Shown piece after piece: positions 6,708-26,875 of a DNA stretch of 32,000 nt. The stretch comes from Candidatus Saccharimonadota bacterium. Its GTDB lineage: Bacteria; Patescibacteriota; Gracilibacteria; BD1-5; UBA2023. Below the pieces are notes generated by a model. It was not told where the DNA came from. It did no database searches and saw only the letters and a list, made by a program, of their open reading frames with translations. Location of the stretch: contig JAXLZO010000001.1 of assembly GCA_046350815.1 (NCBI GenBank), positions 120,001 to 152,000 on the forward strand. Reading direction: 5' to 3'. The stretch's first letter is position 1. Every line of letters begins with the position of its first letter. The translations under genes were made by a program, and so were the position numbers.

Positions 6708-6735
6708 CTCACCACAATCCACCCCGGCTTCACCA

Positions 6736-6851
6736 CCCCTCAAGAGGGGAAGAATATAGAATACAACTCCCCCTCAACGAGGGGAAAAACGAGCTTTCGA
6801 GTAGGGGAAGTCCGTATTCTATCATCCTGAATTCATTTCAGGATCTACTAT
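6736..6851. repeat. intergenic nest of short palindromic modules
   Basis: Hairpins cccctc-aa-gagggg (6736-6749), cccctc-aac-gagggg (6770-6784) and atcctgaa-ttcat-ttcaggat plus ctactat (6824-6851). The same modules recur at 12501-12976. Confidence 0.8.
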
Positions 6852-9989: not shown

Positions 9990-9996
9990 GATCACA

Positions 9997-10034
9997 ATAT
10001 AAAATTCCTCTCAGATCTGAGAGGAATTTTATAT
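9997..10034 (+). terminator. rho-independent terminator
   Basis: Perfect 38-nt palindrome atataaaattcctctcaga|tctgagaggaattttatat. Confidence 0.8.
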
Positions 10035-10156
10035 TTGAATGAATATAGGATCAATGAGCAAGTGAATCTTGGCAATATCCGACACTTTATAAGGGATTTA
10101 TATTGACATGTATGAGCTCTATCATATGATTTCCGCATATTTCTTTTGTTTCTCCT

Positions 10157-11371: not shown

Positions 11372-11381
11372 CCGACAATAT

Positions 11382-11409
11382 AAAAACCGCATCGTACGAT
11401 GCGGTTTTT
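11382..11409. terminator. bidirectional terminator
   Basis: aaaaaccgcatcg ta cgatgcggttttt lies between convergent genes. Confidence 0.8.
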
Positions 11410-11430
11410 ATATTCAGCACGAAATCACAT

Positions 11431-11742
11431 CTAAGAAATATTCCCACGAACCAGAGTACGAACTCTCTCAATCAGAAAAGTCGTCTCCTCAACATGATGC
11501 TGCTCGAGTCGATTGTAACGCTCCTCCCAAGAAAGAGTTTCATCATCACGATAGCGAGCAACTCGAATCCAACCAAATGTTTCCAATATTTTCTGAGCTT
11601 CCAGTGGAGTCAAGGATTGATCGACAGGAAGAGAATCGAGAATATGTGCTACGAGCAACTGAAAAAACTCTGGATTTTCTTCTTGAAATTGAGTAATTTT
11701 TGAAAGATCGGGGGCATTAGATGATGGAAGATTCTCTGACAT
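11431..11742 (-). CDS. hypothetical protein (103 aa)
   Basis: An intact ORF in the track, co-oriented with the next gene. I recognise no family. Confidence 0.5.
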   Translation of the reverse strand: MSENLPSSNAPDLSKITQFQEENPEFFQLLVAHILDSLPVDQSLTPLEAQKILETFGWIRVARYRDDETLSWEERYNRLEQHHVEETTFLIERVRTLVRGNIS

Positions 11743-11786
11743 GGAAAATATTTTAGTCTAAAGAAGGTAATACTTTAGATGACGTG

Positions 11787-12413
11787 TTAAAGATGTTTGC
11801 GTTTATCTAATAAAGATGATGCTATATGACTAACCTCTTTCCGTTTGAGCCCCCTATCTATAATTGTATTCACAATATTACGTGTATATATATGTTTACT
11901 TGGCAAAAGAAGCTGAAGGCTTTCAATTTGCCCCTCATGTTTTTTATTTCTTCCATAACGAAAATAGTCCTTTAGATTTTTAAGTAGCCTATTATCAATT
12001 CACATTAAATCAGCCTGATAAATCAAACCAGCATCTCTATATTTTCCATAAACGCGTATAAAGAAATCATAAGAAGTTTCATTTTGTGAGTTGTACGGAT
12101 CAAATTTCTCAATATCCCTAAATCACAACTTAATATTCTCCAATTCTTGCTCCAGCGGATCCATCACAAGACCATATTTATTCTTCCGCGGTTCGGTAAG
12201 AATTTGTTCTTTGATTTGCTCTTCTGAGAGCACTGGGATGATAGGATTCTTTCCTTTCGTAAGGACAGCTTTCACCTTCGGGGCAATCGTTGCGAATATC
12301 TCCGGATGAAGCTCACGAAACCGAACAAGAGCTTCAAGATTCGCAAGATGTTGCTGTGCTTCTTGAGTGATTTCTTGATCTGATTCTCAAAATGATTTTT
12401 GTACTTCAGACAT
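11787..12413 (-). CDS. hypothetical protein (208 aa)
   Basis: ATG at 12413 (MSEVQKSF...). The frame stays open through 3 TGA to TAA 11787-11789. The standard-code track misses this gene. Confidence 0.5.
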
Positions 12414-12561
12414 ATTACTTCTAGGAAAAATATATCATACTCATAGTTCTATTTCGTCAATACAATTGAGGAAGTCAAGAGTGAGTTTTGTCTTGGAGCA
12501 ACTCCCCTTAACTCCCTCAACGAGGAGAAACGAGAAAGAGATAGATATTCTAGATTATTAT

Positions 12562-12644
12562 CCCCCTGATAAGGGGTCAGATTTATCAATCCAGTGAGCG
12601 ACACAGTCGTCGTGAGTCGGGGAATGAAAGGGGGTTTGTATCCC
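12562..12644 (+). ncRNA. ~80-nt structured repeat module, copy A (function unknown)
   Basis: It aligns with copies at 12904-12976 and 26756-26835. The internal 5-bp hairpin (12597-12612) differs from the other copies by compensatory changes. The ends, gataagggg and gggggtttgtat, match the inverted repeats of the miaB cassette. Confidence 0.45.
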
Positions 12645-12903
12645 TAAGATAGAAAGGTCGGCTACAGGCAATACAGTGAGGCACACAAACGTACCATATC
12701 GTAAATCTTTGGTTCTTGAAATTCCATGAGAATACCTTAAATATAAAGGATTCTCCATATGATCGAAATGATAAAAACCGTCATCCTGAACTTGATTCAG
12801 GATCTACTATCCATTCAGAAGATTCCCGTCTACACGGGAATGACAACATTTATCATTCCAAAGAACACATGAAAGTTGCAGAGTTCAGCTAAATGAACTT
12901 ATT

Positions 12904-12976
12904 CCCTCTCGTTGAGGGCAAGGTTCACCAGTCCAGTAAATCGCATAGACGCGATGAGTCGGGGGTTAGGGGGAGC
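12904..12976 (+). ncRNA. structured repeat module, copy B
   Basis: ccagtaaatcgcatagacgcgatgagtcggg matches the core of copy C; its flanks have diverged. Confidence 0.4.
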
Positions 12977-12999
12977 TACCGAATCATCTCTTTCACCGA

Positions 13000-15423: not shown

Positions 15424-15813
15424 ATGTTTCAGATATTTAAGAAAAAATCTTCTCTTCATATTCCTTTTCTTAATGGAGAAAGCACGAACGTTTCAGAAGT
15501 AGAAAGTCTACGTACCAAAGAGAGAATTTTTCTCACGTGGGCAATCATTGCCACACTACTTCTCCTACTCGTGGGTGCTGTGATTGGTTTTTTCTACCTC
15601 AAAAATCACGTATTCGAGCTCGGAGTGAAAGCATGAGAACAAGCATCCTATAAACGCCTCTATACATCTGTACAAGATGCTGGATGTCGACCAATCGATA
15701 TTAGTGCACCGGAGGGGTCGGCACAATGAGCAAAGGTATCGCTCCTGAATATGGCGTGCTTTATGCAACCACAGAGATCAAATAGCTGAACTATCATAAG
15801 AAATGGGCGATAG
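15424..15813 (+). CDS. small single-pass membrane protein, last gene of the pilin cluster
   Basis: ATG at 15424 and TM helix WAIIATLLLLLVGAVIGFFYL. It has 3 in-frame TGA and stops at TAG 15811-15813, overlapping the recJ start. Confidence 0.5.
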
Positions 15814-17518
15814 TAAAATTCTTTCTTCGCTCCTTGAGAAACAGTATGTACTTCTACAAGAAGATAATCAATCAATAGAACATCTTCTTCTCACTCATCG
15901 TAATCTTCCTACGGATCTTCTCTCGCAGGAAGATTTTCTCCATCCACAATTTCATCATCTTCATGATCCATACCTGTTTCCTCAGATGCAAGAGGCGGTT
16001 GATAGAATCCTCAAGGCACGTGATAATTATGAACGGATAGTGATATTTGGTGATTACGATGTTGATGGAGTATCATCCACCGCTCTCCTAGTGAAATTTC
16101 TCACACAGATCGGATGTGAGGTCTCATACCGACTTCCTCATAGAGTGAAAGATGGGTATGGATTAAAAGCATATTTTATCGATGAACTCAAATCAAAAGA
16201 TGTATCTCTCGTGATCACAGTAGACTGCTGAACTCGTGACATTGACGTGATCAATCATGCTCATTCCATCGGCGTTGACGTTATCGTGACAGACCACCAT
16301 GCAGTTCCACACACCATACCAGAACATGCAATTGCCTTACTCAATCCGAAGATTCCGGATACTACCTATCCTTTTTCATCACTTTCAGGATCATGAGTAG
16401 CATTCAAGTTGCTGCATGCACTGACGATAGCACTCGAAAAAAACACAAAAAAACAAGAAGAAATACTCAGACAATACATCGATATTGCAACACTTGGTAC
16501 CATTGCTGACTGTATGCCACTCATCGGCGAAAATCGTATCATTGCTACACTCGGACTCAGAGAGCTCAGACGATCTGGATCAATCGGAATTCGTAAACTC
16601 CTCGAGGGCAAAGATCCACATGAAAAAGATGGAGATATTGTAGGATTTCATATCGGACCACGTATTAATGCTGCTGGTCGTATGGATACACCATATACCG
16701 CCCTCTCATTACTCCTCGCCGGTGAGTCCCGGATCGATCCTATCGTGGCAGAAATCGAGATGCTCAATACTTCACGCCGTGACGAGACGAAATTTGCCAC
16801 CGAACGAGCACTCGAAGAAATGGATGTTTCTGGAGAGATTCTCTGGTATGCAAAAGACGACATCGAACATGGCATCATTGGACTTATCGCAGGAAAGTTA
16901 GCAAATGATTTTTCCAAGGTATCGATCGTCCTCAAGGGTGAATGAGAAAAGCTCGTCGCATCGGCACGAAGCGGTGGAGTATGTGATCTCATGGAGCTTC
17001 TCACTCCATCTGCCCATCTCTTCATTGCCTATGGTGGTCATCGCGAAGCAGCAGGATTTAGCGTGAACAAAGCAAAAAGTGACGAGCTCTATAAGTCACT
17101 CTGTGCAACCTATCGCGAGATAGAGAAAAAAGGAGACCAAAAAACTTCATCGAAAATTACAGCCATAGACAAAATCCTCAGTGAAGAATATTTAACACTC
17201 GATTTTTATGAGCAAGTCATGCAACTTGGTCCATATGGAGTATGATTTCCAAAACCAATATTCGGAGTGGAAGTCGATCTGCGAGAAATGCAAGATCTTG
17301 GTTCATCGTGAGAGCATATATCTTTTATTCTGAAAAAATCCAAGAAATTCGAAGAGCAAGTCAAAGCAGTTGGATTTAGTATGCGAGGTCTGATTCCCAA
17401 TAATCAAGATCAAAAAGCACTTTTGATAGGTGAACTCACCAAAAACGTCTGGAACGATCGAGTAAGTCTTCAGTTTATGATACGAGATATTATTTTGTGT
17501 GACAGTGTATGAAGCTAA
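15803..17518 (+). CDS. recJ: single-stranded-DNA-specific exonuclease RecJ
   Basis: DHH motifs are present (IFGDYDVDGVSS, ITVDCG with G encoded by TGA, VTDHH) along with the DHHA1 motif GGHREAAGF. ORF pieces 15803.., 16409.. and 16991.. share one frame. Confidence 0.92.
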
Positions 17519-19539
17519 TAAAACCACAAACATTCTACATCAAGACATTCGGCTGTGCGATGAACTATGCGGATAGTGAGAAAGTAAATATGATCCTCAT
17601 GTCCGCATGACTTCGCAAGGTAGTTGATCCAACCAAAGCTGATGTTGTTATTCTGAACACCTGTAGCGTCCGTCAAAAGGGCGAAGATAAAGTGTTCGGA
17701 TTTATGAGGGAACTCGAAAAATTCCACAAATGATCAGATAAAATGCCTCTTTTCGGAGTTACTGGCTGTATGGTGCGAAAAAGTGGCATCGCACGAAAAC
17801 ATCTTAAAAGACTCAAAGATATCGAAGATATCAAACGTTCTGGTGTACAAAAGATTACACGAGTAGATTCAAGTGATGCCCTCGAAAACTATGATGATGA
17901 GCTTTTTCTGCGAACACAACTCATTGATTTTACCTTTCGTATTGAGGAGGTAAGCTATCTCACTCAGATTCTTACACGAATTTGTGGTGAACATATAGGA
18001 AACGATGCAAAATTCAACGAATATCTCCAAGTCAAACAACTCCAAGAAAATCCCGCTTCTGCTAATATCATCATCCAGACTGGTTGTGATAATTTTTGTA
18101 GTTTTTGTATTGTCCCATATACCCGCGGCCGAGAGATCTCACGTTCTCAAGATGAAATTGTACAGGAAGTGAAACGCGTGGTAAGCGAGTGAACAAAAGA
18201 AATCACCCTCCTCGGACAGAATGTAAACAGCTATGGAAAAGAAACCAAGAAAAAACTCTGGAACGAAGAAGAAATGCGATGGGTACAAAATATAGCCTCC
18301 TTTGGGAAAGAAGGTGCTGAAAACGAGAAACAAAATGGAACTCTTCCCTTCTTGAGGGGTGCCGAAGGCGGGGTGGATGTATTAAATCCCCATGATAAGG
18401 GGGACATAGGGGGTTTGTATCCACAAAACATATCCCACGAAAAATACATCCCATACAATCCAGACCTAAAAGAACGAGCTCAAGAACTACGAAAAAATCA
18501 AACTCTATTCGAGAAAATATTCTGGTATCAAATTCTCAAACAAGGAGAACTTTGACAGCACAAATTCACGAGACAAAAGCCACTCATCGATTTTATTGTT
18601 GATTTTTATTGTTCAGAACTTTCTCTTGTAATAGAAATCGATGGAGATAGTCATGCCAATCAAGAAAAATACGATATTGAGAGAACACAAAAACTTGAAT
18701 CATATGGATTGAGAGTTATTCGATACTCAAATAGAGAAGTCCAGAACAACCCAGAAGGCGTATATGAGGATTTACTCATCAAAATACAAACCCCCCTTAA
18801 TCCCCCCTTATCAGGTGGGCACACACATTTTACCACTCCATTTCGTGATCTTCTCGATGCTCTCGGGGAGATAGGCTGACTTGATCGTATTCGATTTACG
18901 AGCTCCAATCCTCATGATATGACCAAAGATATTCTCGATGCTCATTTTGAGGTACCATGAATGTGTCCATATCTTCACTTTGCACTCCAATCAGGATCGA
19001 ACAGTATGCTCAAGAGGATGAATCGTAAGCATACCTATGAAGATTTCAAAACACAGGTTGAGTATCTCCGATCTCAGGATCCACTCTTCTCAATATCCAC
19101 AGATATAATTGTCGGATTTCCATGAGAGACAGAAGAAGAATTCCAGGCAACGGTCACAGCAATGCAGGAGTGCCAATTCGACTTTGCTTATATTGCTCGC
19201 TACTCTCCACGCTCAGGAACGAGAGCGACAGATACAATGGAAGATGATATCTCAGCAGAGGAAAAAGCACGTCGATGGTCTATCCTCAACGATATTCTCA
19301 GAGAAACCGTTGCAAACCGATCAAGACTCCTTATCGGAAGAGAAGAAGAAATACTCATCAGTGGAGAAGATGGAGATGGAAATCTCTGTGGCCGTACTCG
19401 CAATTTCAAGGAAGTCTACATTCCAAATACCCACTTGATAAAGGGGGGTAGGGGGGATTTTGCTCCTATCAAAAAAGGCGATCTCGTGAAAGTAAAGATT
19501 ATTGAGCTGGATGGATGGGTATTGAGAGGGAAATTTTAA
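17509..19539 (+). CDS. miaB: tRNA methylthiotransferase MiaB-like (radical SAM + TRAM) carrying an in-frame DUF559 insertion
   Basis: Motifs: N-terminal [16 protein letters not shown], the radical-SAM [37 protein letters not shown], and GFPGET with G encoded by TGA 19123-19125. A TRAM-like C-terminus follows. All pieces (17509, 17743, 18274, 19162) share one frame. Confidence 0.85.
18394..18813 (+). mobile_element. inverted-repeat-bounded DUF559 (Vsr/PD-(D/E)XK-like endonuclease) cassette inside miaB
   Basis: The left repeat is gataagggggacatagggggtttgtat (18394-18420). The right repeat is atacaaaccccccttaatccccccttatc (18784-18812), which is its reverse complement with 2 indels. Between them lies [28 protein letters not shown]...[21 protein letters not shown]...RVIRYSN, the DUF559 pattern. 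Confidence 0.75.
19436..19460 (+). repeat. solo copy of the cassette inverted-repeat sequence, in frame in the miaB TRAM region
   Basis: gataaaggggggtaggggggatttt compared with the left repeat gataagggggacatagggggtttgtat. It translates as LIKGGRGDF. Confidence 0.7.
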
Positions 19540-21741: not shown

Positions 21742-21771
21742 AAAGAGAGAGTAAAATCTCCCACCCGATCT

Positions 21772-21807
21772 AGCCACGGTCTAAAGCACCGTGGCTTTTG
21801 TTTTTTT
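21772..21807 (+). terminator. rho-independent terminator after secY
   Basis: agccacgg tctaaagca ccgtggct followed by tttgttttttt. Confidence 0.8.
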
Positions 21808-21860
21808 GCAAGTTCTTATACTGTGATTTCTAGATGAAAATCTTGTTTTTCTCATGAGTA

Positions 21861-22000
21861 ACTATACACTATTGACAACATAGTTACAATCGGCTTGAAA
21901 GCAAACGGGGTTTTGGACCCAAAGGTGGAAACTATACACTATTGACAACATAGTTACAATCGGCTTGAAAGCAAACGGGGTTTTGGACCCAAAGATGGAA
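21861..22000. repeat. perfect tandem duplication, 2 x 70 bp
   Basis: Units 21861-21930 and 21931-22000 differ at a single base (aaaggtggaa vs aaagatggaa). Each unit carries actat-ac-actat-tgacaac-atagt. Confidence 0.95.
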
Positions 22001-26710: not shown

Positions 26711-26755
26711 ACAGAGTAGCAAAACCCAATAGGGAGTCTGTACATTCGTTGTTTT

Positions 26756-26875
26756 CCCTTTGATAATGGGTCAGATTTGCCAATCCAGTGAATCGCATAG
26801 ACGCGATGAGTCGGGAATGAAGAGGGTTTATATTCTACACTTCCTATGATCGTCATTCCGAACACAGAGAGGAAT
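26756..26875. repeat. structured repeat module copy C plus an attcc/ggaat hairpin
   Basis: 26756-26835 aligns with 12562-12644. The hairpin gtcattcc-N11-ggaat (26853-26875) is the inverted form of 12822-12844. Confidence 0.8.

Follow-up and report, generated by a model that had tools for sequence, protein, structure and literature searches.

A modular hairpin repeat with an optional 42-nt core, possibly a hairpin-directed mini-insert, in a Gracilibacteria-like genome that uses genetic code 25

Three copies of a modular repeat, each consisting of a core of exactly 42 nt joined to a G/C-clamped hairpin unit, are present in the 32,000-nt stretch of genomic DNA analyzed here (the window), and at orthologous sites of closely related genomes the core is cleanly present or absent. 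Our preferred reading, which we hold with moderate confidence, is that this module is no stand-alone RNA gene but an interspersed repeat of modular, REP/BOX-like build that carries a mini-insert targeting hairpins.

Results

A four-part module in a recoded genome

In the host genome TGA encodes glycine, and the window is recoded rather than poorly coding. We assign it the Gracilibacteria-like genetic code 25 because the open reading frames (ORFs) of at least 150 aa grow from a total of 3,152 aa to 20,309 aa once TGA is dropped from the stop codons, and because TGA occupies invariant glycine positions in motifs of SecY, ArgRS, MiaB, and RecJ (e.g., the TGA at 18190-18192 in miaB). With TGA at x, the motifs are GYIP-x-IRPG of SecY, NV-x-KPAHIGH of ArgRS, GFP-x-ETEE of MiaB, and VDC-x-T of RecJ. 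The nearest named homologs come from Candidatus Gracilibacteria and Altimarinota. Tools that rely on translation table 11 fragment every long gene in the window.

Six sequences went into a covariance model, which found exactly three full copies of the module in the window, at the places where a first-pass annotation of the DNA had reported a repeat, and a repeat search put these copies in families D1 and D3. The pattern CCAGTRA-N16-GAGTCGGG likewise has exactly three matches in the window against zero expected, while shuffled sequences gave 0.66 at three mismatches. Each module comprises four parts: a CCC..GGG hairpin, the core, a run of 3 to 5 G, and a tail. The core, whose length the annotation had put at about 55 nt, measures 42 nt (45 nt including GGG), and its consensus runs from YMAGnTTY..TCCAGYGA through a 5-bp stem with the 6-nt loop AYAGWC to the second stem arm and GAGTC. 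It always lies directly 3' of the G arm of the hairpin, with G-runs on either side.

Copy A (12549-12644, plus strand; 103.8 bits with the covariance model) has a near-identical ortholog in L057, a 98%-identical strain. Its hairpin unit CCCCCTGATAAGGGG at 12562-12576 is followed by the core at 12577-12618, in which the stem arms GCGAC (12598-12602) and GTCGT (12609-12613) enclose the loop ACAGTC, and then by the G-run at 12619-12622 and the tail AATGAAAGGGGGTTTGTATCC. In copy B (12891-12990, plus strand; 91.9 bits), the hairpin unit CCCTCTCGTTGAGGG occupies 12904-12918, the 42-nt core with the stem ATCGC/GCGAT 12919-12960, and the G-run 12961-12965, after which comes the tail TTAGGGGGAGCTACCGAATC. 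Copy C (26743-26836, plus strand; 95.6 bits) consists of the hairpin unit CCCTTTGATAATGGG at 26756-26770, the 42-nt core at 26771-26812, again with the stem ATCGC/GCGAT, GGG, and the tail AATGAAGAGGGTTTATATTC; its ortholog, C', lies at 15749-15842 of the related contig L135.

All three copies are on the plus strand and intergenic when the genes are read with code 25. Copies A and B have a minus-strand gene on either side, one for an unknown 208-aa protein and one for a pilin-like protein. Copy C lies 44 nt past the stop of a plus-strand gene for a GNAT acetyltransferase and is located upstream of the promoter-like site of the next gene. Orientation relative to the flanking genes is not fixed, copy C being sense and copies A and B each antisense to the genes on their two sides, and no promoter or terminator signature of a small-RNA gene was consistent at the module copies. 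ARAGORN found no tRNA or tmRNA. There was no Rfam match at the gathering score anywhere in the window, none at E values of up to 10 overlapped copy A, B, or C, and a check of Rfam and the literature for an already described RNA or repeat family gave no match to the module. Readings of the core as a hammerhead, kink-turn, IHF site, or tRNA T-arm were dropped by eye, positions that each consensus requires being absent from it.

The more distant relative L144 has no DNA match to 11702-12975 of the window and holds only 147 nt in its place (143-289 of L144). The segment includes the 208-aa gene beside copy A (11787-12413, minus strand). On this comparison the whole A/B region is a variable hot spot.

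Other small repeats in the window

Several other small repeats accompany the modules. A 65-nt element at 12780-12844, with two hairpins inside it and GTCATCC...GGAATGAC as its inverted ends, finishes in a terminator-like hairpin and T-run on the minus strand. It is reversed in L135 and L136, where the interior of the second hairpin is different and still complementary, and related hairpins are found at 6817-6851 and in L083 and L085. The element gives a sub-threshold match to Rfam FtrB (Francisella) at 12758-12856 (minus strand; 40.9 bits against a gathering score of 66, E of 3e-5) and is distinct from the module. At 12715-12765, three substitutions relative to L057 fall in or beside the hairpin CATGAGAATACCTT..AAGGATTCTCCATATG, and the T-to-C and A-to-G changes among them may be a compensating pair.

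Two tandem 70-nt units, 99% identical, are located at 21860-21999 between secY and the gene for peptidyl-tRNA hydrolase. L135 has no match to the segment that holds them (21745-21997 of the window), and L057 carries a copy of the unit at a different locus, by the palindromic terminator at 11377-11414. Judged from these sequences, the 70-nt unit is another putatively mobile or unstable small repeat. Perfect palindromes of 38 to 40 nt (AATATAAAA..TTTTATATT) stand directly past gene ends at 9996-10035 and 11377-11414 and are probably bidirectional intrinsic terminators.

The hairpin unit also occurs without the core

The chassis of the module is a G/C-clamped hairpin unit that reads CCCC-loop-GGGG, a few bases, and then GGGGG(T/A)TTGTAT. 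At least two variants exist, CCCCnTGATAAGGGG ... GGGGGTTTGTATCC (copies A and C and the miaB repeats) and CCCTCTCGTTGAGGG ... GTTAGGGGGAG (copy B), and both also occur core-less in the window and in relatives. About nine hairpin units were seen in the 32-kb window.

That the module shares its ends with the repeats of a DUF559 cassette in miaB, as the first-pass annotation had proposed, is borne out by the model, which aligns both of these repeats to module positions 1-28 and 75-96, the 46 model positions in between being replaced by 1 nt. The left inverted repeat of the insert, the short core-less unit CCCCATGATAAGGGGGACATAGGGGGTTTGTATCC at 18375-18423 (plus strand; identified by the model and by sequence), is translated in frame as 13 residues within miaB. 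The right one at 18781-18831 (minus strand; found by the model and as inverted-repeat pairs I11 and I12) is read on the plus strand as 10 residues. The 35-nt repeats around the miaB DUF559 domain are thus the hairpin unit of the module without its core. We rejected derivation of the module from the whole DUF559 cassette by internal deletion: it is a single unit with a linker insert and not the left and right ends of a cassette joined together.

Copy B, which represents the other variant of the hairpin unit, has core-less forms of its own at 12497-12535 (minus strand; reverse complement TCTCCTCGTTGAGGGAGTTAAGGGGAGTTG) and 6758-6798 (minus strand), and the ortholog of the former in L136 carries a core (copy G). 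The unit at 6758-6798 is one of two core-less units at 6717-6798, between dnaX and a mutY-like gene, which were recognized by an inverted-repeat search, the model (a weak match of 11.7 bits with an E value of about 1), and a hairpin scan. The second unit, at 6717-6753, forms the inverted-repeat pair I1 with 18342-18378 (89% complementary over 37 nt), and this latter copy of the 37-nt repeat falls within the insert of miaB, a short way upstream of its left core-less unit. The 37-nt repeat resembles the hairpin unit with a longer linker and is probably a variant of it; it is also found in a variable intergenic region of L135 (1213-1254) and L136 (1700-1756).

A DUF559 nuclease gene travels with the hairpin unit

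The miaB gene (17509-19539, plus strand) encodes 676 aa when read with code 25 and contains an insert at about 18290-18830. Within it, an in-frame DUF559 (Vsr-like endonuclease) domain at 18466-18786 (plus strand; MiaB residues 320-426) splits the radical SAM domain. The match to PF04480 (E of 1.7e-31) is full-length, covering positions 3-108 of the 109 in the profile, and its 108.8 bits exceed the cut-off of 20.6; the catalytic-type residues D..E.D..H are conserved, and the closest solved structure, 3HRL, is without an assigned function. DUF559 is found within MiaB in more than 35 homologous clusters (50 to 95% identity, 617 to 818 aa), with at least two DUF559 subtypes at the insert site. 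In all 27 insert-bearing sequences that were read, the site is the same, after KKLWN..W and before TPFR(D/E)LL, and the frame is always open; the close relatives L144 and L145 encode MiaB of 489 to 499 aa without the insert. There is no intein or intron signature at the MiaB insert, which looks like a recurrent or long-lived homing-type occupation that is translated as part of the host enzyme.

Free-standing DUF559 ORFs with the same flanks in translation, at most 61% identical to the query, are encoded by Sulfurimicrobium, Desulfuromonadales, Nitrospirae, Zixibacteria, Patescibacteria, and others. PPDKGxxGG precedes the domain and TPLxPPLSGG follows it, and at the DNA level the two flanks are mutual reverse complements. 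At least one translated motif inside the called ORF was present in 68 of the 120 best DUF559 homologs, a count that is biased because the query included the flanks. The DNA of three DUF559 loci of other phyla (L133, 3980-4560; L134, 3960-4480; L131, 140-185) shows the units directly: CCCC(C)-TGAYAA-GGGG(G), then GGGGGTT, brackets the DUF559 gene, and in L133 and L134 inverted doublets of the unit are repeated on either side of it. Rfam gave nothing convincing for these doublets, and neither Rfam nor the searchable literature yielded a family or a paper describing the DUF559-bracketing hairpin unit. Among the ORFs of the 32-kb window, a Pfam search detected no transposase, RAYT, recombinase, or integrase.

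Filled and empty sites in close relatives

We compared the window with two syntenic genomes, L135 (about 88 to 95% identical) and L136 (about 81 to 89% identical). At orthologous sites the genomes differ by a clean indel of 45 nt, the 42-nt core plus GGG, whose position is in every case immediately 3' of the hairpin. The B site is filled in the window and in L057, while L135 and L136 hold a short unit without the core. The G site is filled in L136, with a clean 45-nt insert that holds the core, and empty in the window and in L135. Copy A is missing from both L135 and L136. These filled and empty sites show directly that the short repeat is the module minus its core, or the module the repeat plus a core, as had been suggested from the window. 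Counted in total, there are 5 G in the empty allele and 8 G in the filled one at the B site as well as at the G site, so that the extra GGG is either a 3-bp target duplication or the end of an element that terminates in GGG. The unit that surrounds copy G is reversed, and the core nonetheless lies directly 3' of the hairpin; the hairpin itself, and not the whole unit, marks the spot.

Two contigs of the second recoded genome, L083 and L085, are 98.6% identical and differ by a 165-nt indel that contains the whole of module E. Two independent assemblies end inside the core, namely, L001 (a Logan contig, in the core of copy C) and L068, as expected of a multicopy sequence. At the B site of L144 there is a decayed, AT-rich module-like sequence (22.9 bits), and the history of this site therefore needs two events in any scenario. 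We claim no direction of core gain or loss at the B site; slippage between G-runs could by itself explain losses.

Stem pairing is kept while the stem letters change

The covariation reported for the window is as claimed: the stem GCGAC/GTCGT of copy A differs from ATCGC/GCGAT of copies B and C by one pair altered on one side (A-T to G-T) and three altered on both sides, with one pair unchanged. Pairing was also kept in a larger alignment of 10 distinct sequences from 7 loci, which has five stem forms. There, 92.9% of the cells that the proposed structure assigns to pairs were standard pairs, against 84.4 ± 1.4 in shuffles, with 0 of 500 shuffles reaching the observed value, and pairing fell to 40 to 48% when partners were slid. 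In the core helix pairing reaches 98%, and at three of its pairs both partners have changed; an upstream 2-bp mini-helix covaries too (columns 33-34 with 39-40; pairs G-C, C-G, A-U, and U-G). Uncompensated changes comprise an A.C in C', an A.C in E, and a broken hairpin 1 in copy B of L057.

Mean pairwise identity among loci is 0.89 for the TCCAGYGA flank and 0.96 for the GAGTCGG flank, both values being raised by search-pattern bias; the loop reaches 0.75, the stems 0.58, and the sequence beyond the module 0.35. The view that selection acts on the fold rather than on the sequence is supported, with a qualification: pairing of the stem is maintained as its letters change, but only the stem is free, and the near-invariant TCCAGYGA and GAGTCGG indicate that sequence is constrained as well.

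Folding of single sequences was no better than that of shuffled ones (z-scores of -1.5 to +0.8 for RNA and -2.4 to +0.35 for DNA), so it is the comparison of copies that makes the case for structure. From these alignments the fold is supported, and RNA, single-stranded DNA, and cruciform DNA are all compatible with it; the variable helices have no strand preference (G-T 10 versus A-C 8). Template-switch repair of quasi-palindromes would also keep a palindrome paired without selection. Such mechanical self-correction could produce some of the compensation while leaving the invariant flanks unexplained.

Further copies and distribution

Searches with the model and BLAST of metagenome loci and of contigs reached via MiaB homologs revealed five more loci in related metagenome contigs, all of which adjoin a CCC..GGG hairpin. 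Copy D (stem ATTGC/GCAAT) sits in a long-tail unit, copies E (GGTAT/GCACT) and F (ATCAC/GTGAT) sit in type 2 units, and copy G of L136 (ATCGC/GCGAT) sits in a reverse-oriented unit; C', the ortholog of C in L135, has one uncompensated stem change. With A and C in type 1 and B in type 2, the core is therefore found in four unit contexts. A pattern scan of metagenomes showed orthologs of A and B in L057, and one locus of the second recoded genome across L061, L068, L083, and L085.

The exact core pattern had at least 80 matches in metagenomes, with 5 genuine loci among the matches listed, and no matches in viral contigs. The 47 matches in 185,579 species representatives were all single, in unrelated taxa, and without module flanks. 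In 83 kb of more distant relatives that have MiaB-DUF559, neither the module nor the short unit was present, which argues that the core-bearing module is confined to a narrow, genus-level code-25 group. A protein search with peptides from spurious ORFs across the module (7-sequence alignment) gave no further copies.

Discussion

Likeness to known repeats and mobile elements

The module is of the small-palindromic-repeat kind, and we file it as a member of no named family, since it lacks the defining features of those with which it was compared. BOX elements (boxA-boxB-boxC) are dispersed and noncoding and combine conserved end modules with or without an internal stem-loop subunit of ~45 nt. 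In architecture, the only level at which the two were compared, pneumococcal BOX resembles our module as a modular intergenic repeat with an optional internal stem-loop. Here, by contrast, the ends are a DUF559-tied, G/C-clamped hairpin, no tandem multiples of the core were seen, and the host is a code-25 bacterium from a candidate phylum. Neisseria Correia and enterobacterial ERIC elements are intergenic and exist in a longer and a shorter class, set apart by a discrete internal stretch of ~50 to 70 bp, and their potential to fold can affect transcripts. Their long and short forms recall the module with and without the core; unlike Correia, with its 26-bp terminal inverted repeats and TA target duplication, the 42-nt core has no terminal inverted repeats and sits in a G-run by a hairpin.

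The REP/REPIN-RAYT system shares with our units the short, G/C-rich palindromes, occurring singly or as inverted doublets, and a nuclease-type gene flanked by its own units (as in L133 and L134). Small repeats nested in palindromes and in-frame insertions into genes have been documented for REPs (PMC3733652). The GTAG/CGTC tag, however, is absent; the module units begin with (T)CCCC, and CGTC or GACG inside some core stems is not conserved in the alignment. Moreover, the gene in question is a PD-(D/E)XK, Vsr-like DUF559 gene and not an IS200/IS605-type Y1 transposase, and the window encodes no RAYT. Rickettsia RPEs are palindromes tolerated in frame in essential genes, much as the units and DUF559 are read through in miaB, but they carry no nuclease gene, and their sequence and host are unrelated.

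In IS200/IS605 elements and their non-autonomous PATE derivatives, class C group II introns (which insert after terminators), and REP-targeting insertion sequences, a neighboring DNA hairpin instead of a long target sequence sets the position of insertion. Recognition of structure, as in such hairpin-directed insertion, would explain the covarying stem. Enzymes or ribozyme domains can be identified for these inserters, however, and their lengths run from 100 nt up to several kb; a 42-nt insert with one hairpin is far smaller than all of them. As in miniature inverted-repeat transposable elements (MITEs), the presence of the core is polymorphic (the G site, the B site, and the L083/L085 indel); unlike in MITEs, the core has no terminal inverted repeats, and no autonomous element with the ends of the core was found in the window or the fetched loci. 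Integron attC sites differ in their GTTRRRY-type ends (RYYYAAC...GTTRRRY boxes), which the units lack, and there is no integrase in the window.

Readings of the module

According to our preferred reading, the module consists of a chassis, the hairpin unit that brackets DUF559 genes in many phyla and, here, the DUF559 domain of miaB, and of an added part, the 42-nt core, which would have been joined to some hairpin units in this genus-level code-25 group. A trans-acting enzyme that recognizes the folded single strand may be copying the core to new hairpin sites, or may have done so until recently. Such recognition would keep the stem paired and the sequences flanking the loop fixed. Loss could then occur through slippage between the flanking G-runs. 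By association, the DUF559 nuclease is a candidate for nicking at the hairpins. Several observations count against this reading: the ends of the core (YMAGnTT... and ...GAGTC) are not complementary and thus form no terminal inverted repeats, the 32-kb window encodes no transposase, RAYT, or recombinase, the apparent GGG duplication may simply be the end of the element, the near-invariant flanks would equally suit a protein- or RNA-binding motif with a host function, and the known loci number only 7 to 8 in all.

A more far-reaching version is tentative and, as a whole, rather unlikely. In this version, the hairpin units and DUF559 would together be an undescribed selfish element that crosses phyla, with a Vsr-like nuclease gene in its own palindromes as a counterpart of RAYT-REPIN built on another enzyme, which can settle in frame in the essential miaB and be kept there across long evolutionary distances. 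The core, riding on these units, would in that case be the smallest hairpin-targeting mobile insert known, and its covarying stem would be a recognition structure in single-stranded DNA.

The main rival, which we consider unlikely, is that the module is an RNA motif whose structure serves the host, for instance as a small RNA, a 3'-UTR stabilizer, or a protein-binding element. CCAGYGA / GAGUCGG would then form a conserved internal loop, in which tandem G.A pairs and G.U pairs may occur, and this loop would be the binding surface on a stem that is only a scaffold, and dispersal would mean that several genes are regulated. Covariation of the stem beside an invariant loop-flanking sequence fits this proposal, as do the pair types of the second mini-helix and the location of copies B and C just past gene ends. 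If the outer pairs are real, the plus strand also pairs better (92.9% versus 77.6% on the minus strand), but the asymmetry comes from invariant pairs proposed by the analysis, and the variable helices show none. The inconsistent orientation to flanking genes, the dispensability of the core at orthologous sites of sister genomes, and the missing transcription signals argue against an RNA gene, and the ordinary folding energies do not help a motif. The absence of an Rfam match and of a promoter or terminator pattern, the lack of a fixed orientation, and the assemblies that break in the core lead us away from that reading and back to the interspersed repeat with its mini-insert.

A host site at the DNA level, i.e., a protein-binding or recombination site or a hairpin related to the nucleoid, termination, or replication, as with REP/BIME, spread by recombination between hairpin units instead of by transposition, is very unlikely. 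Two short, highly conserved blocks beside a stem that is conserved in structure only, the clustering in a few intergenic hot spots with other small repeats, and variable helices without strand preference would suit it. No partner protein was identified, however, sister genomes do without the copies, and the distribution is confined to a narrow lineage, with none in the 83 kb of distant relatives and chance matches in the species representatives. Finally, a decaying selfish or neutral repeat with an unselected fold, its complementarity restored by template-switch repair or gene conversion, could draw on the ability of the arms of short palindromes to correct each other (established for bacterial quasi-palindromes), on the uncompensated changes, and on the ordinary thermodynamic stability, but it is very unlikely given five stem variants still paired across two to three genomes and a divergence so uneven between flanks, stems, and surroundings as to be unlike neutral decay.

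Significance

Small palindromic repeats are known from proteobacteria and firmicutes, and none have been described for Gracilibacteria-like genomes in the searchable literature. These genomes are reduced and recoded, and every base in them is thought to be under pressure. In practice, the repeats break metagenome assemblies and, when translated, give spurious "PDKG/PLSGG" extensions on annotated proteins. The natural filled and empty sites offer a way to study how a 42-nt insert comes to lie beside a hairpin, and the module family is a testable link between the common, uncharacterized DUF559 nucleases and the hairpin that travels with DUF559 across phyla.
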